Under the pieces are notes generated by a model. The model searched no databases. It saw nothing but the letters and a program-made list of their open reading frames with translations, and had not been told where the DNA came from. The position numbers and the translations under genes were made by a program. From Escherichia coli (GTDB taxonomy: Bacteria; Pseudomonadota; Gammaproteobacteria; Enterobacterales; Enterobacteriaceae): DNA of 64,000 bases. The stretch is taken from NCBI RefSeq assembly GCF_044324875.1, contig NZ_CP172185.1, one strand, 5' to 3'. How positions within the stretch are numbered: position 1 is the first letter of the stretch; each line of letters opens with the position of its first letter. Positions 16,189 to 64,000 of this stretch are shown here, piece after piece.

Positions 16189-16900
16189 GTGCACAGAAAA
16201 CCCCCAGCTAGGCTGGGGGTTCCGGAAAGCTTTCAGCTTTGAGCCAGTTATTAAAACCCCTTTTGATTTGTTAAAACACCTTGCGGTCTGGCAACTGCAA
16301 GTGTCAAACAAGAAATCAAAAGGGGGTCCCAATGGGGAACGAAAAGAGCTTAGCGCACACCCGATGGAACTGTAAATATCACATAGTATTTGCGCCAAAA
16401 TACCGAAGACAGGTGTTCTACAGAGAGAAGCGTAGAGCAATAGGCTGTATTTTGAGAAAGCTGTGTGAGTGGAAAAGTGTACGGATTCTGGAAGCTGAAT
16501 GCTGTGCAGATCATATCCATATGCTTGTGGAGATCCCGCCCAAAATGAGCGTATCAGGCTTTATGGGATATCTGAAAGGGAAAAGCAGTCTGATGCTTTA
16601 CGAGCAGTTTGGTGATTTGAAATTCAAATACAGGAACAGGGAGTTCTGGTGCAGAGGGTATTACGTCGATACGGTGGGTAAGAACACGGCGAAGATACAG
16701 GATTACATAAAGCACCAGCTTGAAGAGGATAAAATGGGAGAGCAGTTATCGATTCCCTATCCGGGCAGCCCGTTTACGGGCCGTAAGTAACGAAGTTGGA
16801 TGCAAATGTCAGATCGTGTGCGCCTGTTAGGGCGCGGCTGGTAAGAGAGCCTTATAGGCGCATTTGAAAAACCTCCGGCTATGCCGGAGGATATTTATTC
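16189..16900 (+). mobile_element. IS200-family insertion sequence, copy 1 (about 712 bp)
   Basis: Identical to the copies at 48635..49346 and 55755..56466; left end GTGCACAGAAAACCCCCAGCTAGGCTGGGGG hairpin, right end CCTCCGGCTATGCCGGAGGATATTTATTC; single tnpA; no target duplication. Confidence 0.9.
16332..16790 (+). CDS. tnpA: IS200 transposase TnpA (Y1 HUH family)
   Basis: 152-aa product MGNEKSLAHTRWNCKYHIVFAPKYRR...HIHMLVEIPP, with the HxH motif and catalytic Tyr region typical of IS200/IS605 TnpA. Confidence 0.92.
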   Translation: MGNEKSLAHTRWNCKYHIVFAPKYRRQVFYREKRRAIGCILRKLCEWKSVRILEAECCADHIHMLVEIPPKMSVSGFMGYLKGKSSLMLYEQFGDLKFKYRNREFWCRGYYVDTVGKNTAKIQDYIKHQLEEDKMGEQLSIPYPGSPFTGRK

Positions 16901-45414: not shown

Positions 45415-45679
45415 AAATAACCTTTAGCATCTTTTATAGAGTCTGGTGTTCAGTCTATTCCTGTTGCGTAAATCGCGCTATGCAGAATCTTCATCTTTTC
45501 AGGTACAAACGCCTTTATTGCTACATTTTTATAACATACACCGCGTAATGCCATCGACCAGAAAGGTGGCATATGGTGTGATCGGGGTTCAATAAATTGC
45601 GAAACAAGGTATACTCCAGCAGTTCCTGAAGATGTTTATTGTACTAAACGCTCCTGTACGAGGACGCTACTGCGCACCT

Positions 45680-46882
45680 ATGACACAATTCGCTTCTCCT
45701 GTTCTGCACTCGTTGCTGGATACAGATGCTTATAAGTTGCATATGCAGCAAGCCGTGTTTCATCACTATTACGATGTGCATGTCGCGGCGGAGTTTCGTT
45801 GCCGAGGTGACGATCTGCTGGGTATTTATGCCGATGCTATTCGTGAACAGGTTCAGGCGATGCAGCACCTGCGCCTGCAGGATGATGAATATCAATGGCT
45901 CTCAGCCCTGCCTTTCTTTAAGGCCGACTATCTTAACTGGCTACGCGAGTTCCGCTTTAACCCGGAACAAGTCACCGTGTCCAACGATAATGGCAAGCTG
46001 GATATTCGTTTAAGCGGCCCGTGGCGTGAAGTCATCCTCTGGGAAGTTCCTTTGCTGGCGGTTATCAGTGAAATGGTACATCGCTATCGCTCACCGCAGG
46101 CCGACGTTGCGCAAGCCCTCGACACGCTGGAAAGCAAATTAGCCGATTTCTCGGCATTAACCGCCGGTCTTGATATGTCGCGCTTCCATCTGATGGATTT
46201 TGGCACCCGCCGACGTTTTTCTCGTGAAGTACAAGAAACCATCGTGAAACGTCTGCAACAGGAATCCTGGTTCGTGGGCACCAGCAACTACGATCTGGCG
46301 CGTCGGCTTTCCCTCACGCCAATGGGAACACAAGCACACGAATGGTTCCAGGCGCATCAGCAAATCAGTCCGGATCTTGCCAACAGCCAGCGAGCTGCAC
46401 TTGCTGCCTGGCTGGAAGAATATCCCGACCAACTTGGCATTGCATTAACCGACTGCATCACTATGGATGCTTTCCTGCGTGATTTCGGTGTCGAGTTCGC
46501 CAGTCGCTATCAGGGCCTGCGTCATGACTCCGGCGACCCGGTTGAATGGGGTGAAAAAGCCATTGCACATTATGAGAAGCTGGGAATTGATCCACAGAGT
46601 AAAACGCTGGTTTTCTCTGACAATCTGGATTTACGCAAAGCGGTTGAGCTATACCGCCACTTCTCTTCCCGCGTGCAATTAAGTTTTGGTATTGGGACTC
46701 GCCTGACCTGCGATATCCCCCAGGTAAAACCCCTGAATATTGTCATTAAGTTGGTAGAGTGTAACGGTAAACCGGTGGCGAAACTTTCTGACAGCCCTGG
46801 CAAAACTATCTGCCATGATAAAGCGTTTGTTCGGGCGCTGCGCAAAGCGTTCGACCTTCCGCATATTAAAAAAGCCAGTTAA
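45680..46882 (+). CDS. pncB: Nicotinate phosphoribosyltransferase
   Basis: 400-aa product [22 protein letters not shown]; ORF 45632..46882 is an upstream extension. Confidence 0.92.
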
Positions 46883-46916: not shown

Positions 46917-47050
46917 CCTTTAATTCCGAAATCTTTCGCTGCATTTGCGAATTCTGCTTGTCTGATTGCAGATGCCAGGTAACATAGGTATCCCCCCATT
47001 TACGGGTGGACAAGTGTTTATTTTTTCCGACTATTAACAGAGAGAATATT

Positions 47051-48451
47051 ATGAGCGTTGTGCCTGTAGCCGACGTACTCCAGGGCCGCGTAGCCGTTGA
47101 CAGCGAAGTCACCGTGCGCGGATGGGTACGTACCCGCCGAGATTCAAAAGCTGGCATCTCCTTCCTCGCCGTTTATGACGGTTCCTGCTTTGATCCTGTA
47201 CAGGCTGTCATCAATAATTCTCTGCCCAATTACAATGAAGACGTCTTGCGTCTGACCACCGGCTGCTCGGTCATTGTGACGGGTAAAGTCGTGGCGTCGC
47301 CGGGCCAGGGGCAACAATTTGAAATTCAGGCCAGCAAGGTTGAAGTTGCTGGTTGGGTTGAAGATCCAGACACTTACCCGATGGCGGCAAAACGCCACAG
47401 CATTGAGTATCTGCGTGAAGTCGCTCACCTGCGTCCGCGCACAAACCTGATTGGTGCCGTCGCGCGCGTTCGCCATACGCTGGCGCAGGCGCTGCATCGC
47501 TTCTTTAACGAGCAGGGATTCTTCTGGGTTTCAACGCCACTGATTACTGCGTCTGATACCGAAGGGGCTGGCGAAATGTTCCGCGTTTCTACGCTGGATC
47601 TGGAAAACCTGCCGCGTAACGATCAGGGCAAAGTGGATTTCGACAAAGACTTCTTTGGTAAAGAGTCTTTCCTGACCGTATCTGGCCAGTTGAACGGCGA
47701 AACCTACGCTTGCGCATTGTCCAAAATTTATACCTTCGGCCCGACTTTCCGTGCTGAAAACTCCAACACCAGCCGTCACCTGGCGGAATTCTGGATGCTG
47801 GAGCCGGAAGTGGCGTTTGCTAACCTGAACGATATTGCGGGTCTGGCTGAAGCCATGCTGAAATATGTCTTCAAAGCGGTTCTCGAAGAACGCGCTGACG
47901 ACATGAAATTCTTCGCTGAACGCGTAGATAAAGATGCCGTTTCACGTCTGGAACGCTTTATTGAGGCCGATTTCGCGCAGGTGGATTACACCGACGCAGT
48001 GACCATTCTCGAAAACTGCGGCAGGAAGTTTGAAAACCCGGTTTACTGGGGCGTCGATCTCTCTTCTGAGCATGAGCGTTATCTGGCGGAAGAACACTTT
48101 AAAGCACCGGTAGTGGTTAAAAACTATCCGAAAGATATTAAAGCGTTCTATATGCGCCTTAACGAAGACGGTAAAACCGTTGCGGCTATGGACGTTCTGG
48201 CTCCGGGCATCGGTGAGATCATTGGTGGCTCCCAGCGTGAAGAGCGTCTGGACGTGCTGGACGAGCGTATGCTGGAAATGGGCCTGAACAAAGAAGATTA
48301 CTGGTGGTATCGCGATCTGCGTCGCTACGGTACTGTTCCGCATTCCGGTTTCGGTCTTGGTTTTGAACGCCTGATTGCTTACGTAACAGGCGTGCAAAAC
48401 GTGCGTGATGTGATTCCGTTCCCACGTACTCCACGTAACGCCAGCTTCTAA
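47051..48451 (+). CDS. asnS: Asparaginyl-tRNA synthetase
   Basis: 466-aa product [25 protein letters not shown]; class II aaRS motifs. Confidence 0.95.
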
Positions 48452-48465
48452 TTTAGCGTCTTCAA

Positions 48466-48494
48466 GAGCCAGCGCCCGCTGGCTCTTTTTTTAT
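48466..48494 (+). terminator. asnS rho-independent terminator
   Basis: AGAGCCAGC-gccc-GCTGGCTCT followed by TTTTTTT. Confidence 0.8.
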
Positions 48495-48562
48495 CCTTTC
48501 TGTCAAGTTATCTGTTTGTTAAGTCAAGCAATCTATTTGCAACCCCACCATAACGATCATCC

Positions 48563-48593
48563 TGTTACGGAATATTACACTGCAACATTTGCG
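48563..48593 (+). promoter_or_regulatory. Distal OmpR-binding site of ompF (F4-like)
   Basis: TGTTACGGAATATTACACTGCAACATTTGCG; it would sit about -380 to -350 from the predicted ompF start site once the 712-bp IS is subtracted. Confidence 0.55.
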
Positions 48594-48634
48594 CACAAAA
48601 AATAATCCGCATTCTTATTGCGGATTAGTTTTTT

Positions 48635-49346
48635 GTGCACAGAAAACCCCCAGCTAGGCTGGGGGTTCCGGAAAGCTTTCAGCTTTGAGCCAGTTATTAA
48701 AACCCCTTTTGATTTGTTAAAACACCTTGCGGTCTGGCAACTGCAAGTGTCAAACAAGAAATCAAAAGGGGGTCCCAATGGGGAACGAAAAGAGCTTAGC
48801 GCACACCCGATGGAACTGTAAATATCACATAGTATTTGCGCCAAAATACCGAAGACAGGTGTTCTACAGAGAGAAGCGTAGAGCAATAGGCTGTATTTTG
48901 AGAAAGCTGTGTGAGTGGAAAAGTGTACGGATTCTGGAAGCTGAATGCTGTGCAGATCATATCCATATGCTTGTGGAGATCCCGCCCAAAATGAGCGTAT
49001 CAGGCTTTATGGGATATCTGAAAGGGAAAAGCAGTCTGATGCTTTACGAGCAGTTTGGTGATTTGAAATTCAAATACAGGAACAGGGAGTTCTGGTGCAG
49101 AGGGTATTACGTCGATACGGTGGGTAAGAACACGGCGAAGATACAGGATTACATAAAGCACCAGCTTGAAGAGGATAAAATGGGAGAGCAGTTATCGATT
49201 CCCTATCCGGGCAGCCCGTTTACGGGCCGTAAGTAACGAAGTTGGATGCAAATGTCAGATCGTGTGCGCCTGTTAGGGCGCGGCTGGTAAGAGAGCCTTA
49301 TAGGCGCATTTGAAAAACCTCCGGCTATGCCGGAGGATATTTATTC
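48635..49346 (+). mobile_element. IS200-family insertion sequence, copy 2, inside the ompF upstream regulatory region
   Basis: Identical to copy 1; left end abuts AATCCGCA-ttcttatt-GCGGATT hairpin plus T-run. Confidence 0.9.
48778..49236 (+). CDS. tnpA: IS200 transposase TnpA
   Basis: Protein identical to the copy-1 TnpA. Confidence 0.92.
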   Translation: MGNEKSLAHTRWNCKYHIVFAPKYRRQVFYREKRRAIGCILRKLCEWKSVRILEAECCADHIHMLVEIPPKMSVSGFMGYLKGKSSLMLYEQFGDLKFKYRNREFWCRGYYVDTVGKNTAKIQDYIKHQLEEDKMGEQLSIPYPGSPFTGRK

Positions 49347-49552
49347 TTAGCTGATAGCACAATTTTCATACTATTTTTTGGCGTTCTGGATGTCTGAACG
49401 AGGATTTAGTGCCAGGTCGATAAAGTTTCCATCAGAAACAAAATTTCCGTTTAGTTAATTTAAATATAATGAAATCATATAAATAGATAAATATTGCTGT
49501 AAATATCATCACGCTTCTATGGAAATATGACGGTGTTCACAAAGTTCCTTAA

Positions 49553-49660
49553 ATTTTACTTTTGGTTACATATTTTTTCTTTTTGAAACCAAACCTTTAT
49601 CTTTGTAGCACTTTCACGGTAGCGAAACGTTAGTTTGAATGGAAAGATGCCTGCAGACAC
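49553..49660 (+). promoter_or_regulatory. ompF proximal OmpR sites (F1-F3) and core promoter
   Basis: TTTTACTTTTGGTTACATATTTTTTCTTTTTGAAACCAAA direct-repeat OmpR half-sites, about 110 bp of leader before the ATG at 49765. Confidence 0.6.
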
Positions 49661-49764
49661 ATAAAGACACCAAACTCTCATCAATAGTTCCGTAAATTTT
49701 TATTGACAGAACTTATTGACGGCAGTGGCAGGTGTCATAAAAAAAACCATGAGGGTAATAAATA

Positions 49765-50853
49765 ATGATGAAGCGCAATATTCTGGCAGTGATCGTCCCT
49801 GCTCTGTTAGTAGCAGGTACTGCAAACGCTGCAGAAATCTATAACAAAGATGGCAACAAAGTAGATCTGTACGGTAAAGCTGTCGGTCTGCATTATTTCT
49901 CCAAGGGTAACGGTGAAAACAGTTACGGTGGCAATGGTGACATGACCTATGCCCGTCTTGGTTTTAAAGGGGAAACTCAAATCAATTCCGATCTGACCGG
50001 TTATGGTCAGTGGGAATATAACTTCCAGGGTAACAACTCTGAAGGCGCTGACGCTCAAACTGGTAACAAAACGCGTCTGGCATTCGCGGGTCTTAAATAC
50101 GCTGACGTTGGTTCTTTCGATTACGGCCGTAACTACGGTGTGGTTTATGATGCACTGGGTTACACCGATATGCTGCCAGAATTTGGTGGTGATACTGCAT
50201 ACAGCGATGACTTCTTCGTTGGTCGTGTTGGCGGCGTTGCTACCTATCGTAACTCCAACTTCTTTGGTCTGGTTGATGGCCTGAACTTCGCTGTTCAGTA
50301 CCTGGGTAAAAATGAGCGTGACACTGCACGCCGCTCTAACGGCGACGGTGTTGGCGGTTCTATCAGCTACGAATACGAAGGCTTTGGTATCGTTGGTGCT
50401 TATGGCGCCGCTGACCGTACCAACCTGCAAGAAGCTCAACCTCTTGGCAACGGTAAAAAAGCTGAACAGTGGGCTACTGGTCTGAAGTATGACGCGAACA
50501 ACATCTACCTGGCAGCGAACTACGGTGAAACCCGTAACGCTACGCCGATCACTAATAAATTTACAAACATCAGCGGCTTCGCCAACAAAACGCAAGACGT
50601 TCTGTTAGTTGCGCAATACCAGTTCGATTTCGGTCTGCGTCCGTCCATCGCTTACACCAAATCTAAAGCGAAAGACGTAGAAGGTATCGGTGATGTTGAT
50701 CTGGTGAACTACTTTGAAGTGGGAGCAACCTACTACTTCAACAAAAACATGTCCACCTATGTTGACTACATCATCAACCAGATCGATTCTGACAACAAAC
50801 TGGGCGTAGGTTCTGACGACACCGTTGCTGTGGGTATCGTTTACCAGTTCTAA
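49765..50853 (+). CDS. ompF: Outer membrane porin OmpF
   Basis: 362-aa ORF, signal peptide [23 protein letters not shown]-terminal VAVGIVYQF. Confidence 0.95.
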
Positions 50854-51037: not shown

Positions 51038-52228
51038 ATGTTTGAGAACATTACCGCCGCTCCTGCCGACCCGATTCTGGGCCTGGCCGATCTGTTTCGT
51101 GCCGATGAACGTCCCGGCAAAATTAACCTCGGGATTGGTGTCTATAAAGATGAGACGGGCAAAACCCCGGTACTGACCAGTGTGAAAAAGGCTGAACAGT
51201 ATCTGCTCGAAAATGAAACCACCAAAAATTACCTCGGCATTGACGGCATCCCTGAATTTGGTCGCTGCACTCAGGAACTGCTGTTTGGTAAAGGTAGCGC
51301 CCTGATCAATGACAAACGTGCTCGCACGGCACAGACTCCGGGTGGCACTGGCGCACTACGCGTGGCTGCCGATTTCCTGGCAAAAAATACCAGCGTTAAG
51401 CGTGTGTGGGTGAGCAACCCAAGCTGGCCGAACCATAAGAGCGTCTTTAACTCTGCAGGTCTGGAAGTTCGTGAATACGCTTATTATGATGCGGAAAATC
51501 ACACCCTTGACTTCGATGCACTGATTAACAGCCTGAACGAAGCTCAGGCTGGCGACGTAGTGCTGTTCCATGGCTGCTGCCATAACCCAACCGGTATCGA
51601 CCCTACGCTGGAACAATGGCAGACACTGGCACAACTTTCCGTTGAGAAAGGCTGGTTACCGCTGTTTGACTTCGCTTACCAGGGTTTTGCCCGTGGTCTG
51701 GAAGAAGATGCTGAAGGACTGCGCGCTTTCGCGGCTATGCATAAAGAGCTGATTGTTGCCAGTTCCTACTCTAAAAACTTTGGCCTGTACAACGAGCGTG
51801 TTGGCGCTTGTACTCTGGTTGCTGCCGACAGTGAAACCGTTGATCGCGCATTCAGCCAAATGAAAGCGGCGATTCGCGCTAACTACTCTAACCCACCAGC
51901 ACACGGCGCTTCTGTTGTTGCCACCATCCTGAGCAACGATGCATTACGTGCGATTTGGGAACAAGAGCTGACTGATATGCGCCAGCGTATTCAGCGTATG
52001 CGTCAGTTGTTCGTCAATACGCTGCAGGAAAAAGGCGCAAACCGCGACTTCAGCTTTATCATCAAACAGAACGGCATGTTCTCCTTCAGTGGTCTGACAA
52101 AAGAACAAGTGCTGCGTCTGCGCGAAGAGTTTGGCGTGTATGCTGTTGCTTCTGGTCGTGTGAACGTAGCCGGGATGACACCAGATAACATGGCTCCGCT
52201 GTGCGAAGCGATTGTGGCAGTGCTGTAA
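51038..52228 (+). CDS. aspC: Aspartate aminotransferase
   Basis: 396-aa [26 protein letters not shown]; PLP-lysine motif SYSKNFGLY. Confidence 0.95.
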
Positions 52229-55754: not shown

Positions 55755-56466
55755 GAATAAATATCCTCCGGCATAGCCGGAGGTTTTTCAAATGCGCCTA
55801 TAAGGCTCTCTTACCAGCCGCGCCCTAACAGGCGCACACGATCTGACATTTGCATCCAACTTCGTTACTTACGGCCCGTAAACGGGCTGCCCGGATAGGG
55901 AATCGATAACTGCTCTCCCATTTTATCCTCTTCAAGCTGGTGCTTTATGTAATCCTGTATCTTCGCCGTGTTCTTACCCACCGTATCGACGTAATACCCT
56001 CTGCACCAGAACTCCCTGTTCCTGTATTTGAATTTCAAATCACCAAACTGCTCGTAAAGCATCAGACTGCTTTTCCCTTTCAGATATCCCATAAAGCCTG
56101 ATACGCTCATTTTGGGCGGGATCTCCACAAGCATATGGATATGATCTGCACAGCATTCAGCTTCCAGAATCCGTACACTTTTCCACTCACACAGCTTTCT
56201 CAAAATACAGCCTATTGCTCTACGCTTCTCTCTGTAGAACACCTGTCTTCGGTATTTTGGCGCAAATACTATGTGATATTTACAGTTCCATCGGGTGTGC
56301 GCTAAGCTCTTTTCGTTCCCCATTGGGACCCCCTTTTGATTTCTTGTTTGACACTTGCAGTTGCCAGACCGCAAGGTGTTTTAACAAATCAAAAGGGGTT
56401 TTAATAACTGGCTCAAAGCTGAAAGCTTTCCGGAACCCCCAGCCTAGCTGGGGGTTTTCTGTGCAC
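55755..56466 (-). mobile_element. IS200-family insertion sequence, copy 3 (inverted)
   Basis: Reverse complement identical to copies 1 and 2; left end abuts the mukB terminator T-run. Confidence 0.9.
55865..56323 (-). CDS. tnpA: IS200 transposase TnpA
   Basis: Protein identical to the copy-1 and copy-2 TnpA. Confidence 0.92.
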   Translation of the reverse strand: MGNEKSLAHTRWNCKYHIVFAPKYRRQVFYREKRRAIGCILRKLCEWKSVRILEAECCADHIHMLVEIPPKMSVSGFMGYLKGKSSLMLYEQFGDLKFKYRNREFWCRGYYVDTVGKNTAKIQDYIKHQLEEDKMGEQLSIPYPGSPFTGRK

Positions 56467-56494
56467 AAAGAAAAGGCGGCATTGCTGCCGCCTT
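56466..56494 (-). terminator. mukB rho-independent terminator
   Basis: On the minus strand AAGGCGGCAGCAATGCCGCCTT followed by TTCTTT, immediately 3' of the mukB stop. Confidence 0.7.
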
Positions 56495-56498
56495 CATT

Positions 56499-59400
56499 TT
56501 AACTCGCTTGGGAAGGCACTTCGTCACTTCCAGGAAGCGTTTCAGGGAGTTGCGGCGCAAATCCTCGCAGGCCGACGACGTGAACGTGTTCGGTATTCTG
56601 GAAGACTTTACGCACCAGTTTATAGGTGGTGCCTTTTTCCGGACTGATATTTTCCGGCGCTGCGATGATGAGCTGCATTTGCAAACGTTCACACAATTCA
56701 AACAGCGTGGCGATAGAACGAGCATCCAGTCGCGCTGCTTCATCGAGGAACAGCAGGCGGCAAGGAGAGATATCTTTACCGCGCAGGCGGCGAGATTCAT
56801 CTTCCCAGCTTTGTACCACCATCACCAGAATCGACATACCGGTACCAATCGCCTCACCGGTCGACAATGCACCAGACTCTGCGCGCAACCAGCCATCAGA
56901 ACCACGGTTAACCTCAACTTCCATTTCCAGATAGTTGCGGTAATCCAGCAGTTCTTCGCCAATGGTCTGCGGCGTGCGCTGCCCCATATCAATCTGCGGA
57001 TTAAGACGCTGATACAATTTCGCCAGCGCTTCCGAGAAGGTCAGACGGTTGCTGTTAAACAGATCCTGATGCTGCTCATGCTGTTCAGAGAGCACATCCA
57101 GCAGCATGGCGTGCGTTTCACGCACGTTCACGTTGAGGCGCACGCTGTTCACCTGACCAAACGATACGTTCTGCAACCCCTGGTTGAGCATACGGATACG
57201 GTTCTGCTCGCGCTGAATGGTTTTGCGAATGATGTTCGCCACGCTGCGGGAACTGATCGCCAGTTTCTGTTCGCGGGAGGTTAATTCTTCGGTCAGACGG
57301 CTAAGTTCGATCTCCATCTGTTCGATAGCTTCCACCGGATCATCGGTACGAATAATATCCTGACGAATACGTTCACGCAGATGCTGATAAACCGCCACGA
57401 AGAACTGAATTTTACGCTCCGGACGTTTCGGATCTTCCGACATGCGCAGCACGTCGCGCAGATGTTCGTTATCCGCCACCGCCAGACGCAGCGCACCTAA
57501 CGCCTTATCCGACATAGAGCGCAAATCATCAGCGGAGAGATAAGCCAGCTCACGACGGTGTAAGCGACGCTCAACGCCGTTATCTTTCACCATGCGCATG
57601 ACTGCACACCAGCCCGCTTTCGCGGTCACTACCTGCTCGCGCATCTCAAAGTAATCCCGCTCCAGCTTGCGCAGTTTGCGGGTCAGGTTGTCCATCTCTG
57701 CTTCGCAGAAGGTAAGCGCTTTTTCCAGTTGATTGCGGCGTGAACGGTTATTGCTCAGTTGCGCGTGCAACTCGTCACGGCGAATACGCGCCCGCTCTTC
57801 TGCCCCGCTATCAGCTCGCACGCCGATATCCTGCAATTCACGTTGCAGATCATTGAGTAGCTCTTTTTTGGTGTCGTAAGAACTTTTCAGCGAAGCCAGC
57901 ACCTGGTTGTACTGACTCAACTGCGCTGCGTGTCCGCGCAACGCTTCACGCGCGCGGGTACGCTCCGCTTCCGCCTGTTCCAGACGTTCACGCAGTTTTT
58001 CGTTGAGATCGCTGTTACCGCTAAGCATTTCTGCCGAGTCAGAGTAGCTAAAGTGCGCACGACGTTGCACCACTTCCGTCAGGGCAAACGCCTGCTGACG
58101 GGCATCGCGCTGCATCTGCTGAGAGTACGCGTAATCTTCTTTTAACTGTTCGAACTGTTCCGGGTCACTCTGCAATACCGAAACGATCGGTTCCAGTTTC
58201 GCCAGTTGATTACCGAACTGCTGAACAAAACGCGCGGCTTCCTGGGCTTCATCCAGACGTTCGCGGATTTCATCGACGCGATCCGCCAGGCTGTCATCAG
58301 CCAACAAGTTGAGACGCGGCAGAATGCGGTTCAGCGCCGTAACACCCTCTTTCGCCTGCTCAAACTGAATACGCTGCTGCTGGTTATCATTTTCATGATT
58401 ACTCAACGCCCGCTCCAGTTCGACGCGACGGCTGTTCAGTTGACGGATTTCTGCTTCCGGGTCAGACTCAAACGCCACCGCCAGATGACTACCTATAAAG
58501 CGGCTGAATGCCTGATGCAGACGCTGGGTTTTCTGTACATCAAAGGAGAGCGTGGCGAAGCGTTCGGAAAGCACTTCACGCTCGGCATGGAGGCTTTCAA
58601 TACGGCTTTCACGCGCAGCACGACCAAACAGCGGCACTTCCGGGAAACGTGAATAACGCCACTGACGATCGGCGATTTTCACCACTACCGCTTTTTCCAG
58701 CTCATCAACGCTGAACACGCTGTCATCGAATGACTGCGGATCCCCTTCGATCAGATAGAGATCTTCCGGGCAATCGGTCAAGCCTTCCAGGTGCTCGGTT
58801 ACCTGTGACAGATCTGGCACCACGATGGCGTGGCGTGACGGGCCATACAGTGCCGAGAAGTACGGCGCATCTTCCAGACTCACGTCGTCATAAATTTCGG
58901 ACAGCAGCACGCCGCCAAAACGCTCCGCCAGCGCATTCAAACGCTGGTCTTCAGAACCACCTGGCTGGCTTAAACGTTCGATCTCTTCATCGACGGCGTT
59001 TTTGCGCGCGCCTACTTCATCGCGTTCAACAATGGCTTCGCGCTCACGCTCCAGCAACTGTTGCAGATATTCGGTGACATCCTGGCTAGAGGAGAACTCT
59101 TCGCCGCACTGTTCGCTCAACTGGTTGAGGCTGTTTTGCGCAGCCAGCCAAACCGGCGCACGCTGCATCAAACTCTGAATGCGAGACTGCAGCTGTTCCT
59201 GTTCCTGGCGCAGAGCCATGCGCTCTTCACGGGCGTTAGACACGCTATCGGAAAGAGAGGCAATGCGTGCTTCCAGCTCCTGATGCAGAGCTTCCAGTTC
59301 ATCAATATCAAAATTCTTGCCCTGACGTTTGCAGAAATCTGCCAGCAGGCGTTCGGCTTCTTGCTGCTCGCGCAGACGCTGTTCCAGTTCGCTTAAGCGC

Positions 59401-60959
59401 ATCCGCAACGGTTGAACCTGCTCTGCCAGGTGACGCTGATCGACCCCTTCGCGCAATAGTTCGCGAGCGACATCCCACGCCTCGTTACGCGCCAGCGGGC
59501 CATTAATTGCCACCACCAGCTGATAAGCCTGCTCAAACTGGCTGTGTGCGGTTTGCGCCATGCTCATTTTCTGCTCAAGAGAGAGCATTTTTTCAGTCGC
59601 TTCCAGCTCTTTCGCCTGGAAGGTTTCCAGCCATTCGGCGGCGCTGTCGGCGGTTAAGTCCGGCAGATGGCACAGTTCTTTGGCACGATTAAGCGCAGCA
59701 ATCGCCTGGTTATACTGGATCGCGCGCGTTTGCTGGACGTCCAGCGCCTGCTGATAGTCAGCAAGCTGGCTTTTCAGCTCGTCCACTTCCAGTTCGGCAG
59801 CTTCCGCACGAGCCTCGTTCTCTTCCTGGCGTTCGATGGCTTCTGCCACCACTTCGTTTTGCTCTTCCAGACGGATCTGCAGCTCATCGAGATCCGCTTC
59901 GTAACGTTCGATCTTCTCCTGCTGACGCAGTGCGGTTTGCACCAGGTTCAGGTGATCGCTGGCCGCCTGATAATCTGCTTCCAGATCGCCTTCGGCACCG
60001 TTGTGCTCTGCCAGCTCACGCGCCATATCGACGTGTTTGTACTGCTCAGCCGCCAGTTGCTGACGCGAAGTGTGTAGCTCGCGACGAAATTCCAGGGCTT
60101 TGTCGAGATGGACACGGCGCTCGTTGGCGTGACGCATGTAGTCCGCCGCCACGTAGTTGGTGGCTTCGCTGATCAGATGCTTAAACAGGTCACGGTCCGA
60201 CTGGGTGACACGAATCGCTTCCAGCGTCATGCGGTTTTCGCGCAGCGCCGCTTCCATGTCCTGGAACGCTTTCCGCACGCCGCTGTTTTCCGGCAACAGG
60301 TAGTCGCGCAGAGAGCGCGTAATGGCGCTGGAGATCCCGCCGTACAGCGAAGCTTCGATCAGACGATAGAATTTGCTACGGTCAGACGCTGAGCGCAGAC
60401 GACGCGCGATGATGCCCAGATCGAACATCAGCGAGTGGTAATCGGTAATGGAGTTGAACTGCTTAAACTGCACGCCTTCCATCGCCTCGAGCTTGTCTTT
60501 CAGCTCGTTCAGCGGCAGTACACGCGCCTGGCGTTCGTTGAGGGTTTCGGTCACCAGCTGCGTCGGCAGCACCGACATCGGCAGGCCCTGAATGGCAAAC
60601 GGTTTGATATCGACTTTACGATCGCGTCCGGCAACCTGTTGCAAACGCACACCGACCACCACACGCTGGTGGCGCGAGTTAATGGTGTCGAGCATCGAAT
60701 AACAGACACCCGCTTTCAGCTTACCGTGCAGACCTTTATCGCGCGAACCGCTGGTGGCCCCGGCTTCCGTGGTGTTACGGAAATGCAGCAGGGTCAGGTC
60801 GGGGATCAGCGCCGTAACGAACGCCGCCATGGTGGTGGATTTACCCGCCCCGTTACCGCCGGAGAGCGTCGTAACCAGCTCATCGAGGTCAAAAGTTCGG
60901 GCAAAAAAGCCGTTCCAGTTAATCAGCGTCAGTGAGCGAAATTTACCGCGTTCAATCAT
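56499..60959 (-). CDS. mukB: Chromosome partition protein MukB (SMC-like condensin)
   Basis: 1486-aa [45 protein letters not shown] with long coiled coils. Confidence 0.96.
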
Positions 60960-61663
60960 TATTCTTCCTCTCCGCTATCTGGCTGACTCTCTTCGGTTTC
61001 ATCGTTGAGTTGCAGATGATTTTCAATCGGCATTGCTTCGCCATCACGAATCAGGCGACGCTGTGCTTCACGGGGATCGTCGCCAGCACGCACATCGGCT
61101 CCGAAGCGGAACACCGATTCGGTAATGCGGAACTTGCTGCTGTCGTGGCCCATAAACCACACCATACCCAAACGACGCAGACGGTTGAGCGAAGAACGTA
61201 CTTTTTCCTGCAACTTCTGGCGGTCAACGTCTGAACCGGTTGAACGGTTGTTCACCAGTTTCAGCAGTTTCGCTTCATCGGCCAGGGTGAGCAGTTCGTC
61301 GTACAGTTCCTGCTGGGTGAAAATCCCCTCGTTCGCCAGCCGTTCCGGGCTGAGATAGAGATAACAGAGGATTTTCCCGACCATCATATCCAGTTCCGAC
61401 AAGACGGAACGCGGGATAAGAGTGGTGGAACGTGGGCGTAAATAGAAGAACCCTTCCGGTGCACGAATAAGCTCAACGTTATAACGCGCGTAAAACTCTT
61501 CCAGATATTCCTGAAAATCCATCAGGAATGCATGATTATCCAGTTCGTCGAGGCCAATATGGCGGCCTGAACGTAAGGCGCTATCCAGCGCCGGAAATAA
61601 CGGATTCGCCAGCGCCTGCGCCAGCTTAACCGGCATCACTTGTTCAATATTTGTCGATGACAT
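60959..61663 (-). CDS. mukE: Chromosome partition protein MukE
   Basis: 234-aa product from [23 protein letters not shown], acidic C-terminus; TAATG overlap with the mukB start. Confidence 0.9.
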
Positions 61664-62966
61664 GCGCCTGTACCTTGGCTCCGTAATCATTAATCGGCTG
61701 CCATTTCGCTGGCAGTCCGGTGAAATCTGCTTGCGCTACGCCAAGACGTACCGCCTGATCAATAACAATGCGCGCAACGTCAAAGTGACGTGCACGCGGA
61801 TACTGTGACAGATATTCGCGTACCACCAGACCAAGATCCAGCGGCACTTGTCTGGTTTTGTACACGGCGAGTTGTTCTTCGATGATCGCCGCCAGCTGTT
61901 CGCGGATCTCGTTAAACTCTTCGTACTCCAGATCCTCAGGAAGTTCTCCTGTCACTTCTTCATCGCGCAGAGCCATCTCTTCGTCACGCATATCCAACAG
62001 ACGATCGGCATTGGCATAAGTTAGCGCCCACGGCTCATCAAAATAGGTTTGTACCGACTGACGTAACCGCTGAGCAAAGACGCGGTTTTTATCCATATCG
62101 ATCGCAGTACGAATAAATTTGTGTACGTGGCGGTCGTAGCCAATCCACAAATCGATGGATTGCTGGCCCCAGCTGATAATACGGTCAAGTTTGCTCTGCA
62201 GATCGAATACCAGACGATCGACAAAATGCAGATCGTCATGGGTCATCGTCGCATCCTGAATGCGCAACAGATTAGCCTGCAATTTGTCGCCTGCCGCTTC
62301 CAGCGTATCCTGCAATTCACGCAGCGTTCCGGAAGTTTCCGAAAGCAACAATTCACAGCTGGAGATCGCCGCCCGCCAGTCTTTGTTCAGCAACTGGGCG
62401 ATATCGTCCTTCACCTGCTGCTGCTGTTCGTCCATCAGACGTTGCGTCAGGTCGATACTGTCGAAAATTTCTGCTACCGAATATTTCAGTGGCGCATAAA
62501 CATTACGGTGCCAGTGAAATTCATCACCGCCCTCTTCGGCGGCATCTGCCGCGCGTTTGAGCTCACCCGCCACAATCGACAACTGCATAGAAAGGCGCAG
62601 CGTAGAAAACTCGCGCTGACGGATGTAATAGTCAGTAATGCCGATGCCGAGCGGCGTCAGACGGTAAATTGCGTTCCCTTCCGCCTGCTCGCTGGTAAAG
62701 CGGTTCAGCAGACGTTGACGCACCATGTCGTTGATCGCGTTGTTGGCGCGCACGCCGATGGTTTCGCTGGTTTGCTCAAACGCATCACTCACATGGCGGA
62801 ATGCATCCACCAGCTCGCCTTCACTCATCTCACCATCCAGACGCTCGCCGTTCAGCGTGGCAACCGCCAGCAGAAAAGAGAGTCGGTCTACCGGCAGCGA
62901 GATGGAGAAGTCATTTTTTCTGGCCCAGGCAACCAGTTCGGGGACTGTCTGGGAAAATTCACTCAT
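61644..62966 (-). CDS. mukF: Chromosome partition protein MukF (kleisin)
   Basis: 440-aa [39 protein letters not shown]. Confidence 0.95.
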
Positions 62967-63748
62967 ACTTTATCCTTGCTCTGCGGTTTGCGCGCGGTGA
63001 CATGAATATAACGCCCCAGGGTAATATACGGTTCCTGACGGCAATAACGCGTTTCTAATTCAAGTAATGCTTCATAGCAGTCGCGCTGCTGGTGCTTCTC
63101 GCGCAGATAATCATGAAACACGCGAACGCCTGTCTTACCCATAATTTGCCAACCAGCTTCTTCCAGCCACAGATAAACCTGCGCCGGGTCGCGTGGATAA
63201 TCTGGCGAAAGCGTCCGTTTTTTCTTTTTCGGCATTCCCGCCTGCACGTAATCAAAATTCCCGGCGACCATGTTATGCATCAGCAAGCCGTGCGCATTGT
63301 AGAACATTAACGACAACACACCGCCTGGACGCAACACTGACCACAGGGTCTGTAATACGCTGCGGGGATCGGCCACCCACTCGAGCACCGCATGGAACAA
63401 TATCAGATCAACGGGCGTTTCCAAATGCGAAGCAACATCCTGAGCGGCGCAATGTATAAATTGCATGTTGTCGCTCACACCTTTTGCTTCTGCCGCCTGT
63501 TTTGCGCGGTCGATCATCTGCGCAGAAAGATCGCATAAAATGACCTGATGCCCACGCTCGGCCATTTTGATTGCGGTCTGCCCTTCTCCACCGCCAGCAT
63601 CCAGCACACGCAGTTTTTGCGGGCCCATTTCCGCCAGCACGCGATCGAGATCCTGCCACAGAATAGCCTGTCGAAGCTGCCCTTTGGTGGTGCCGTAAAT
63701 GTTACGGGAAAACTTTTCCGCAATATCATCAAAATTGCGATCCTGCAT
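62963..63748 (-). CDS. smtA: SAM-dependent methyltransferase SmtA/CmoM
   Basis: 261-aa product [19 protein letters not shown] with [12 protein letters not shown]-binding motif; first gene of the smtA-mukFEB operon. Confidence 0.9.
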
Positions 63749-63883
63749 TGCTTTCTCCACCGGTTGGCTAAGACGTTTTCTGATAAAGACGCTATTTTGT
63801 CACAGCCACGGCGAGAATGAACCCGTCTGGTGTAATATCGCTGGCGATCCCTTGCTATATGGTTAAAAAAGGAACCAGAAAGG

Positions 63884-64000
63884 ATGCTTTTTACACTGAA
63901 AAAAGTGATTGGCAATATGTTGCTGCCACTTCCGCTGATGTTGTTGATTATTGGCGCTGGCCTGGCGCTGCTGTGGTTTAGCCGTTTTCAAAAAACCGGG
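63884..64000 (+). CDS. elyC: Envelope biogenesis factor ElyC (YcbC), N-terminal fragment (runs off window end)
   Basis: ATG at 63884 followed by MLFTLKKVIGNMLLPLPLMLLIIGAGLALLWFSRFQKTG; divergent from smtA. Confidence 0.75.
   Translation, partial: MLFTLKKVIGNMLLPLPLMLLIIGAGLALLWFSRFQKTG

Follow-up and report, generated by a model that had tools for sequence, protein, structure and literature searches.

The question raised by this locus is why an insertion sequence (IS) of the IS200 type lies in the control region of the porin gene ompF, between a distal binding site for the regulator OmpR (F4) and the promoter-proximal OmpR sites (F1-F3), and what its presence does to ompF expression. The locus was analysed in a 64,000-nucleotide stretch of Escherichia coli DNA (RefSeq contig NZ_CP172185.1), which is referred to in its full length as the window. 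An earlier reading of the bare letters, here called the original prediction, had placed an IS200 between an F4-like site and the core promoter of ompF and had proposed that OmpF might be derepressed at high osmolarity. Our preferred reading, to which we assign a probability of roughly 0.6, is that a putatively active IS200C-type element inserted beside F4 by targeting a hairpin followed by a T-tract, and that F4-dependent repression of ompF is partly weakened.

The insertion was defined by alignment to E. coli K-12 MG1655 and to ten other IS-less E. coli loci. The spacer between asnS and ompF measures 1313 bp in the window (48452-49764), compared with 602 bp in K-12. In silico deletion of positions 48635-49345 restored a spacer of 602 bp with no gap at the junction relative to any of these loci, and the rejoined junction reads ...GCGGATTAGTTTTTT^CTTAGCTGATAGC... 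(also written as ...AGTTTTTT followed by CTTAGC...). The element was therefore modelled as 711 bp (48635..49345), inserted on the plus strand in the same orientation as ompF and without target duplication, since removal of the 711 bp gives the gap-free IS-less sequence. The boundaries may be moved by up to 2 nt in either direction because T residues flank both ends. The original prediction had given a spacer of about 1314 bp with a 712 bp element at 48635..49346; the IS200 and its left end stand, and the right end was set 1 bp too far, base C49346 belonging to the flank in the IS-less loci. The insertion point falls between positions -310 and -309 of ompF. After removal of the IS, 17 of the 602 spacer positions differ from K-12, with zero gaps. 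The IS-less asnS-ompF spacer is itself fairly polymorphic, with 7-17 differences per 602 bp between E. coli strains.

The alignment to K-12 also settled the identity of the OmpR sites, and in this respect the original prediction was borne out. The sequence TGTTACGGAATATTACACTGCAACATTTGCG at 48563-48593 (plus strand) is the K-12 F4 orthologue, identical at 29 of 31 positions, and lies where it had been placed. The two differences are shared by three IS-less genomes (L009, L014 and L015) and were for this reason treated as a natural allele (ACACTG...TTTGCG); these positions are among the spacer polymorphisms. On the other side of the IS200, the proximal sites F1-F3 occupy 49553-49614 (predicted at about 49553..49612), with one T>C change near the F2/F3 border relative to K-12. 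The window contains only two instances of GTTAC-N6-TTAC phasing. For numbering, the transcription start site (TSS) was placed at 49655, 110 nt upstream of the ATG, which we take to be the position given by EcoCyc/RegulonDB; this placement fits both the AAAGAT -10 element and a location of F1-F3 at about -100..-40. On this scale the F4 orthologue lies at -1092..-1062 with the IS200 and at -381..-351 without it, in agreement with the predicted interval of about -380 to -350. The predicted shift of about 0.7 kb is 711 bp, and the centre-to-centre distance from F4 to F1-F3 increases from approximately 295 bp to approximately 1005 bp. The part of the spacer that stays with the promoter (49346-49552; -309..-103) is collinear with K-12 and presumably holds the site for integration host factor (IHF) near -180. 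The -10 region, the inferred TSS and the 110-nt 5' untranslated region (5'UTR) targeted by micF (together 49643-49764) are identical to K-12. Thus, apart from the single T>C change, F1-F3, the core promoter, the 5'UTR and ompF itself are all intact. In published work F4 is a weak site for phosphorylated OmpR (OmpR-P) located about 260 bp upstream of F1-F2-F3, from which a DNA loop blocks ompF at high osmolarity (PMC3050692, PMC1489923); the IS-less distance calculated here agrees with the 260 bp of PMC3050692.

The exact position of the IS200 is accounted for by the 32 bases directly to its left. These bases (48603-48634), directly 3' of F4, form a terminator-like structure consisting of an A-tract, a 9 bp stem and T6, which we call hairpin 2. 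The terminator scan detected it on either strand (fold -16.6 kcal/mol, z -5.37), and every IS-less genome examined contains it. It is preceded by the intrinsic terminator of asnS (48464-48494, plus strand), a GC-rich hairpin with T7 identified in the same scan (fold -17.8 kcal/mol, z -4.96).

To place hairpin 2 in context, the left flanks of the three IS200 copies in the window were pooled with those of other E. coli loci and those from a scan of species-representative genomes (32 loci, including Citrobacter, Kluyvera, Brenneria, Mangrovibacter, Entomohabitans, Kosakonia, Pluralibacter and Yersinia). A flank was scored when a stable hairpin closed no more than 9 nt from the IS and was accompanied by a T-rich tract. 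All 38 distinct left flanks (38/38) consist of a hairpin plus T-tract, and all end in TT. The same criterion was satisfied at 23 of 4000 random positions (0.6%). T-richness alone fails to explain the pattern, because such a hairpin accompanies only 22% of the T-rich positions in the window. A single hairpin can be used from either side, as seen at hairpin 2 (window and draft locus L062, described below) and at mukB (window and locus L050). Terminator-like sequences upstream of IS200/IS605 elements have been reported as a statistical association (bioRxiv 10.1101/2025.07.22.666184), and the location of IS1541 between the pheL attenuator and pheA in Yersinia (PMC3082878) fits the same pattern. 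Taken together, the flanks indicate that IS200 integrates directly 3' of intrinsic-terminator-like DNA. The position beside F4 requires no selection on ompF, since hairpin and T-tract are what IS200 targets.

The element itself was assigned, from its sequence features, to the IS200C type within the IS200 group of the IS200/IS605 family, which bears out the name IS200 in the original prediction. The sole long open reading frame within the 711 bp is an intact tnpA (48778-49236, plus strand) encoding a Y1 (HUH) transposase of 152 amino acids, which matches the NCBIfam model NF033573 (transpos_IS200) with 145.9 bits against a cut-off of 55; tnpB is absent from the open-reading-frame listing. Identity to RefSeq E. 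coli copies annotated as IS200C family transposase is 97.5-99.5%. There are neither terminal inverted repeats nor a target-site duplication, as is characteristic of the IS200 group. The element is bounded by hairpins at both ends, namely a left-end hairpin at 48645-48667 (fold -18.7 kcal/mol) and a right-end subterminal hairpin at 49318-49336, followed by ATATTTATT, that is terminator-like on both strands (fold -15.9 kcal/mol; both features listed on the plus strand). Runs of A lie directly 5' of both subterminal hairpins (48641-48644 and 49313-49317). The guide sequences of IS608 pair with its cleavage sites; speculatively, the A runs could pair in the same manner with the T-rich left target and with the right-end cleavage site. 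Positions 48645-48768 match the Rfam family STnc490 (RF01405, the IS200 5'UTR/art200 region) with 146.4 bits and E 4e-31. This match is on the plus strand, in the sense of tnpA, whereas art200/STnc490 has been described as antisense to the tnpA 5'UTR (PMC4513863). It was taken as marking the region and not the strand, since the sense strand may be the one that the Rfam model describes.

The recurrence of the insertion was examined in 5426 complete E. coli genomes. The window's exact ompF-upstream allele was found in none of them, and in 5416 the spacer is intact in one piece. The JGI metagenome contigs gave no match to the ompF-upstream junction of the window, and literature searches on IS200 near ompF returned nothing relevant. 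Matches that started at query position 144-178 were discarded, as they represent IS200 at other loci (e.g. yjbM-dusA, with similar hairpin flanks) and not at the ompF locus. The junctions, together with these counts, indicate that the insertion is real and rare.

Other disruptions of the same spacer were informative. In strains MEW (from an ivory gull) and E300010 (from a stool sample in Mozambique) the asnS terminator is the target: an IS200 follows its T7 tract, 143 bp upstream of the site used in the window. F4 stays attached to ompF in these two strains because their IS200 lies upstream of F4, and this allele is a useful natural control. In the draft locus L062 (GCA_000488135.1, KI530678.1; 1725-2963) an inverted IS200 occupies the A-tract side of hairpin 2 and likewise lies between F4 and ompF. 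The same draft locus has scaffold Ns inside its IS200 and encodes a 357-residue OmpF variant.

Three further genomes, all from human isolates, have the order asnS-IS200-aspC with ompF cleanly absent: P31_YH1_02.21 (NZ_CP085063.1), 98205 and OZ121091 (NZ_CP173546.1 and NZ_OZ121091.1). Relative to the window, the left IS200 junction of this trio is shifted 3-4 nt downstream. The right junction falls within the T8 run of the ompF terminator, where a second targeted IS200 copy would be expected to have inserted. We infer that ompF was apparently deleted by recombination between two directly oriented, terminator-targeted IS200 copies. Counting the window, the ompF-less trio and L062, the sites indicate three or more independent insertions at hairpin 2 and one or more at the asnS terminator. 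In another locus (L057; GCA_054047545.1, CM132947.1; 1100-2963) no ompF was called, and a divergent ompF allele carries an apparent frameshift (...GCGAACGAACTACGG...); this ompF may be a pseudogene, unrelated to IS200.

The window contains two more copies of the element, both identical to the first over 711/711 positions. One lies directly after the ompA terminator (16189-16899, plus strand) and the other directly after the mukB terminator (55756-56466, minus strand). The ompA-side junction was found in 0/5426 and the mukB-side junction in 97/5426 of the complete genomes. Transposition competence is thus predicted, indirectly, from three identical copies of which two are private to this lineage. 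The flanks of the window are distant from finished assemblies, the best complete E. coli genome being only 98.8% identical over 14.6 kb. A draft contig (GCA_040716805.1, JALMQQ010000042.1) is 99.987% identical to window positions 56228-64000 and ends approximately 240 bp inside the mukB-side IS200. A MukB allele identical to that of the window was found in 205 index blocks, of which 193 are on contigs of 20-50 kb and none on a contig longer than 200 kb. The OmpF, LdtD, PepN, AspC, GloC, MepK and AsnS alleles of the window are common and hence uninformative on lineage; an exact match to the OmpF sequence in particular is very common among public assemblies. The lineage seems to be one without a complete assembly and with many IS200 copies. 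That three identical copies lie within 64 kb, with two of the junctions absent from complete genomes, suggests that IS200 has expanded recently in a lineage represented by draft assemblies alone. The string GCGGATTAGTTTTTTGTGCACAG would mark the ompF-upstream IS200 in the reads of the approximately 200 related drafts.

The expected consequence for ompF follows from the looping model. In that model OmpR-P bound at the weak site F4 would loop to F1-F3 and repress ompF at high osmolarity. With a longer contour, F4-bound OmpR would be present at the promoter in a lower local concentration. In vivo, looping by LacI and by lambda CI falls in efficiency with contour length, roughly three- to four-fold over this range. 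The 711 bp would in addition be inserted between F4 and the presumed IHF site, so that the latter would no longer lie midway between F4 and F1-F3. F4-dependent repression is expected to be weaker because looping falls with length and the IHF site is displaced. Repression at high osmolarity would be partly weakened and not abolished, and other routes of repression, micF among them, would be untouched. Derepressed OmpF at high osmolarity is a plausible and reasonable prediction from the looping model, and the effect on porin regulation is probably modest. Where a second, directly repeated IS200 came to flank ompF, recombination between the two copies could remove the gene, which is apparently what the P31_YH1_02.21 group has undergone.

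Several points weigh against this reading. In other systems, loops spanning about 1 kb of DNA are readily formed in vivo, such that F4 may still act, and even in K-12 F4 accounts for only part of the repression. Selection that purges insertions within genes could inflate the apparent preference for hairpins. For the deletion step, a search for the intermediate, with IS200 placed after the ompF terminator, found none.

The first two of these points lead to the explanation that survives best beside the preferred one, namely that the insertion is silent for ompF. F4 would either still reach the promoter over about 1 kb or contribute too little to matter, and the IS200 would be a neutral hitch-hiker of an IS200 burst. 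We regard this as quite possible, at somewhat short of even odds. The position of the IS200 is fully accounted for by its target preference, with no need for selection, and every proximal element of ompF is intact. The element is insulated at both ends and its promoter is weak; the other private IS200 copies in the window lie at functionally indifferent terminators. A modest effect, or none, is quite possible because 1 kb loops are feasible, F4 contributes only part of the repression and the micF route is left as it was. Against silence stands the published model, in which F4 has a looping-dependent repressive role over about 260 bp (PMC3050692). In the same report Yersinia pestis, which is without F4, shows an OmpR-dependent increase of ompF with osmolarity (PMC3050692).

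An insertion selected for changed ompF expression, either as derepression that aids nutrient uptake or as a first step towards loss of the porin under pressure from antibiotics, bile or colicins, is considered very unlikely. The use of hairpin 2 on at least three independent occasions and the loss of ompF at this site in three related genomes would be compatible with it, as would the rarity of disruption in a spacer that is otherwise almost always intact (5416/5426). However, recurrence is expected from targeting alone, the asnS, ompA and mukB terminators are targeted too, and the alleles are very rare (0-3 of 5426 genomes). An assembly artefact, in which a multi-copy IS200 was misplaced into the spacer, would be favoured by the identity of the copies within the window and by the breaks at IS200 in draft assemblies of the same lineage, and was rejected because the junctions on both sides are clean and conform to the targeting rule of IS200, joining the flanks reproduces the IS-less sequence exactly and equivalent insertions occur in independent complete genomes.

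The weakening of F4-dependent repression thus remains our preferred reading of the insertion, and two other routes by which the element might act on ompF were considered. The original prediction had suggested that the IS hairpins could block read-through from asnS. The left-end hairpin of Salmonella IS200 is indeed a documented bidirectional Rho-independent terminator; about 85% of the transcripts that reach the left end are stopped there, and tnpA has a weak promoter (PMC4513863, PMC5435999). Such a block would add little here, because two native terminator-like structures, the asnS terminator and hairpin 2, already lie ahead of the IS200. The IS200 as the source of a new ompF promoter was rejected, as the promoter scan found no outward sigma-70-like promoter in its right end. 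Overall, the original prediction holds in part: it is correct on the structure, and the functional effect remains a prediction. It missed the reason for the exact site, the recurrence in other strains and the loss of ompF in one group.

The locus was compared with related systems. The element resembles Salmonella enterica IS200 and E. coli IS200C in having a single 152-residue Y1 transposase without tnpB in about 0.7 kb, in lacking inverted repeats and target duplication, and in its left-end hairpin, STnc490/art200 5'UTR stem-loop and right-end hairpin; its length is 711 bp compared with the 707 bp quoted for Salmonella IS200. It differs from known IS200C copies in its insertion site, which recurs in 0/5426 complete genomes. 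With the IS removed, the ompF upstream region is collinear with that of K-12 through the F4 orthologue, hairpin 2, the spacer, F1-F3, the promoter and the 5'UTR. It differs from K-12 in the 711 bp displacement of F4 and in single-nucleotide changes, two in F4 and one near the F2/F3 border. As in Y. pestis, F4 is unavailable at the normal distance from the promoter; the site is displaced in the window and absent in Y. pestis, and the species and the rest of the regulon differ. Group IIC introns are also mobile elements that target terminators. Like them and like IS1541 (PMC3082878), IS200 integrates directly 3' of a terminator hairpin and T-tract in the orientation of the upstream gene. IS200 is unlike other terminator-targeting elements in using a Y1 single-strand DNA transposase.

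For the remaining features of the locus, pncB (45632-46882), asnS (47006-48451), the IS200, ompF (49765-50853) and aspC (51038-52228) follow one another in this order, all on the plus strand. The ompF coding sequence is intact in the open-reading-frame listing and encodes 362 amino acids.

The finding amounts to a new insertion site of a well known element in a well known regulatory region, rare and accounted for by target preference. A wider proposal is that the hairpin beside F4 is a recurrent IS200 hot spot which, in an E. coli lineage with an IS200 burst, yields F4-uncoupled ompF alleles with altered osmoregulation and, by recombination of IS200 copies at the terminators on either side of ompF, clean ompF deletions, an undescribed route; this is put forward tentatively and is at present rather unlikely. 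If displacement of F4 changes OmpF levels, the strain would be a natural test of the looping model, with the same sites and a 711 bp spacer, and the alleles with IS200 upstream of F4 (MEW and E300010) or on the other side of hairpin 2 (L062) would serve for comparison. OmpF abundance affects the entry of beta-lactams and other antibiotics, and regulatory and deletion alleles of ompF matter clinically for this reason; the three ompF-less asnS-IS200-aspC human isolates show a possible end point. The rule seen in 38/38 flanks would explain why IS200 is usually harmless and predicts where it lands. The recurrent use of the terminators that flank ompF would, in turn, tie IS200 to regulatory change and to the loss of ompF.

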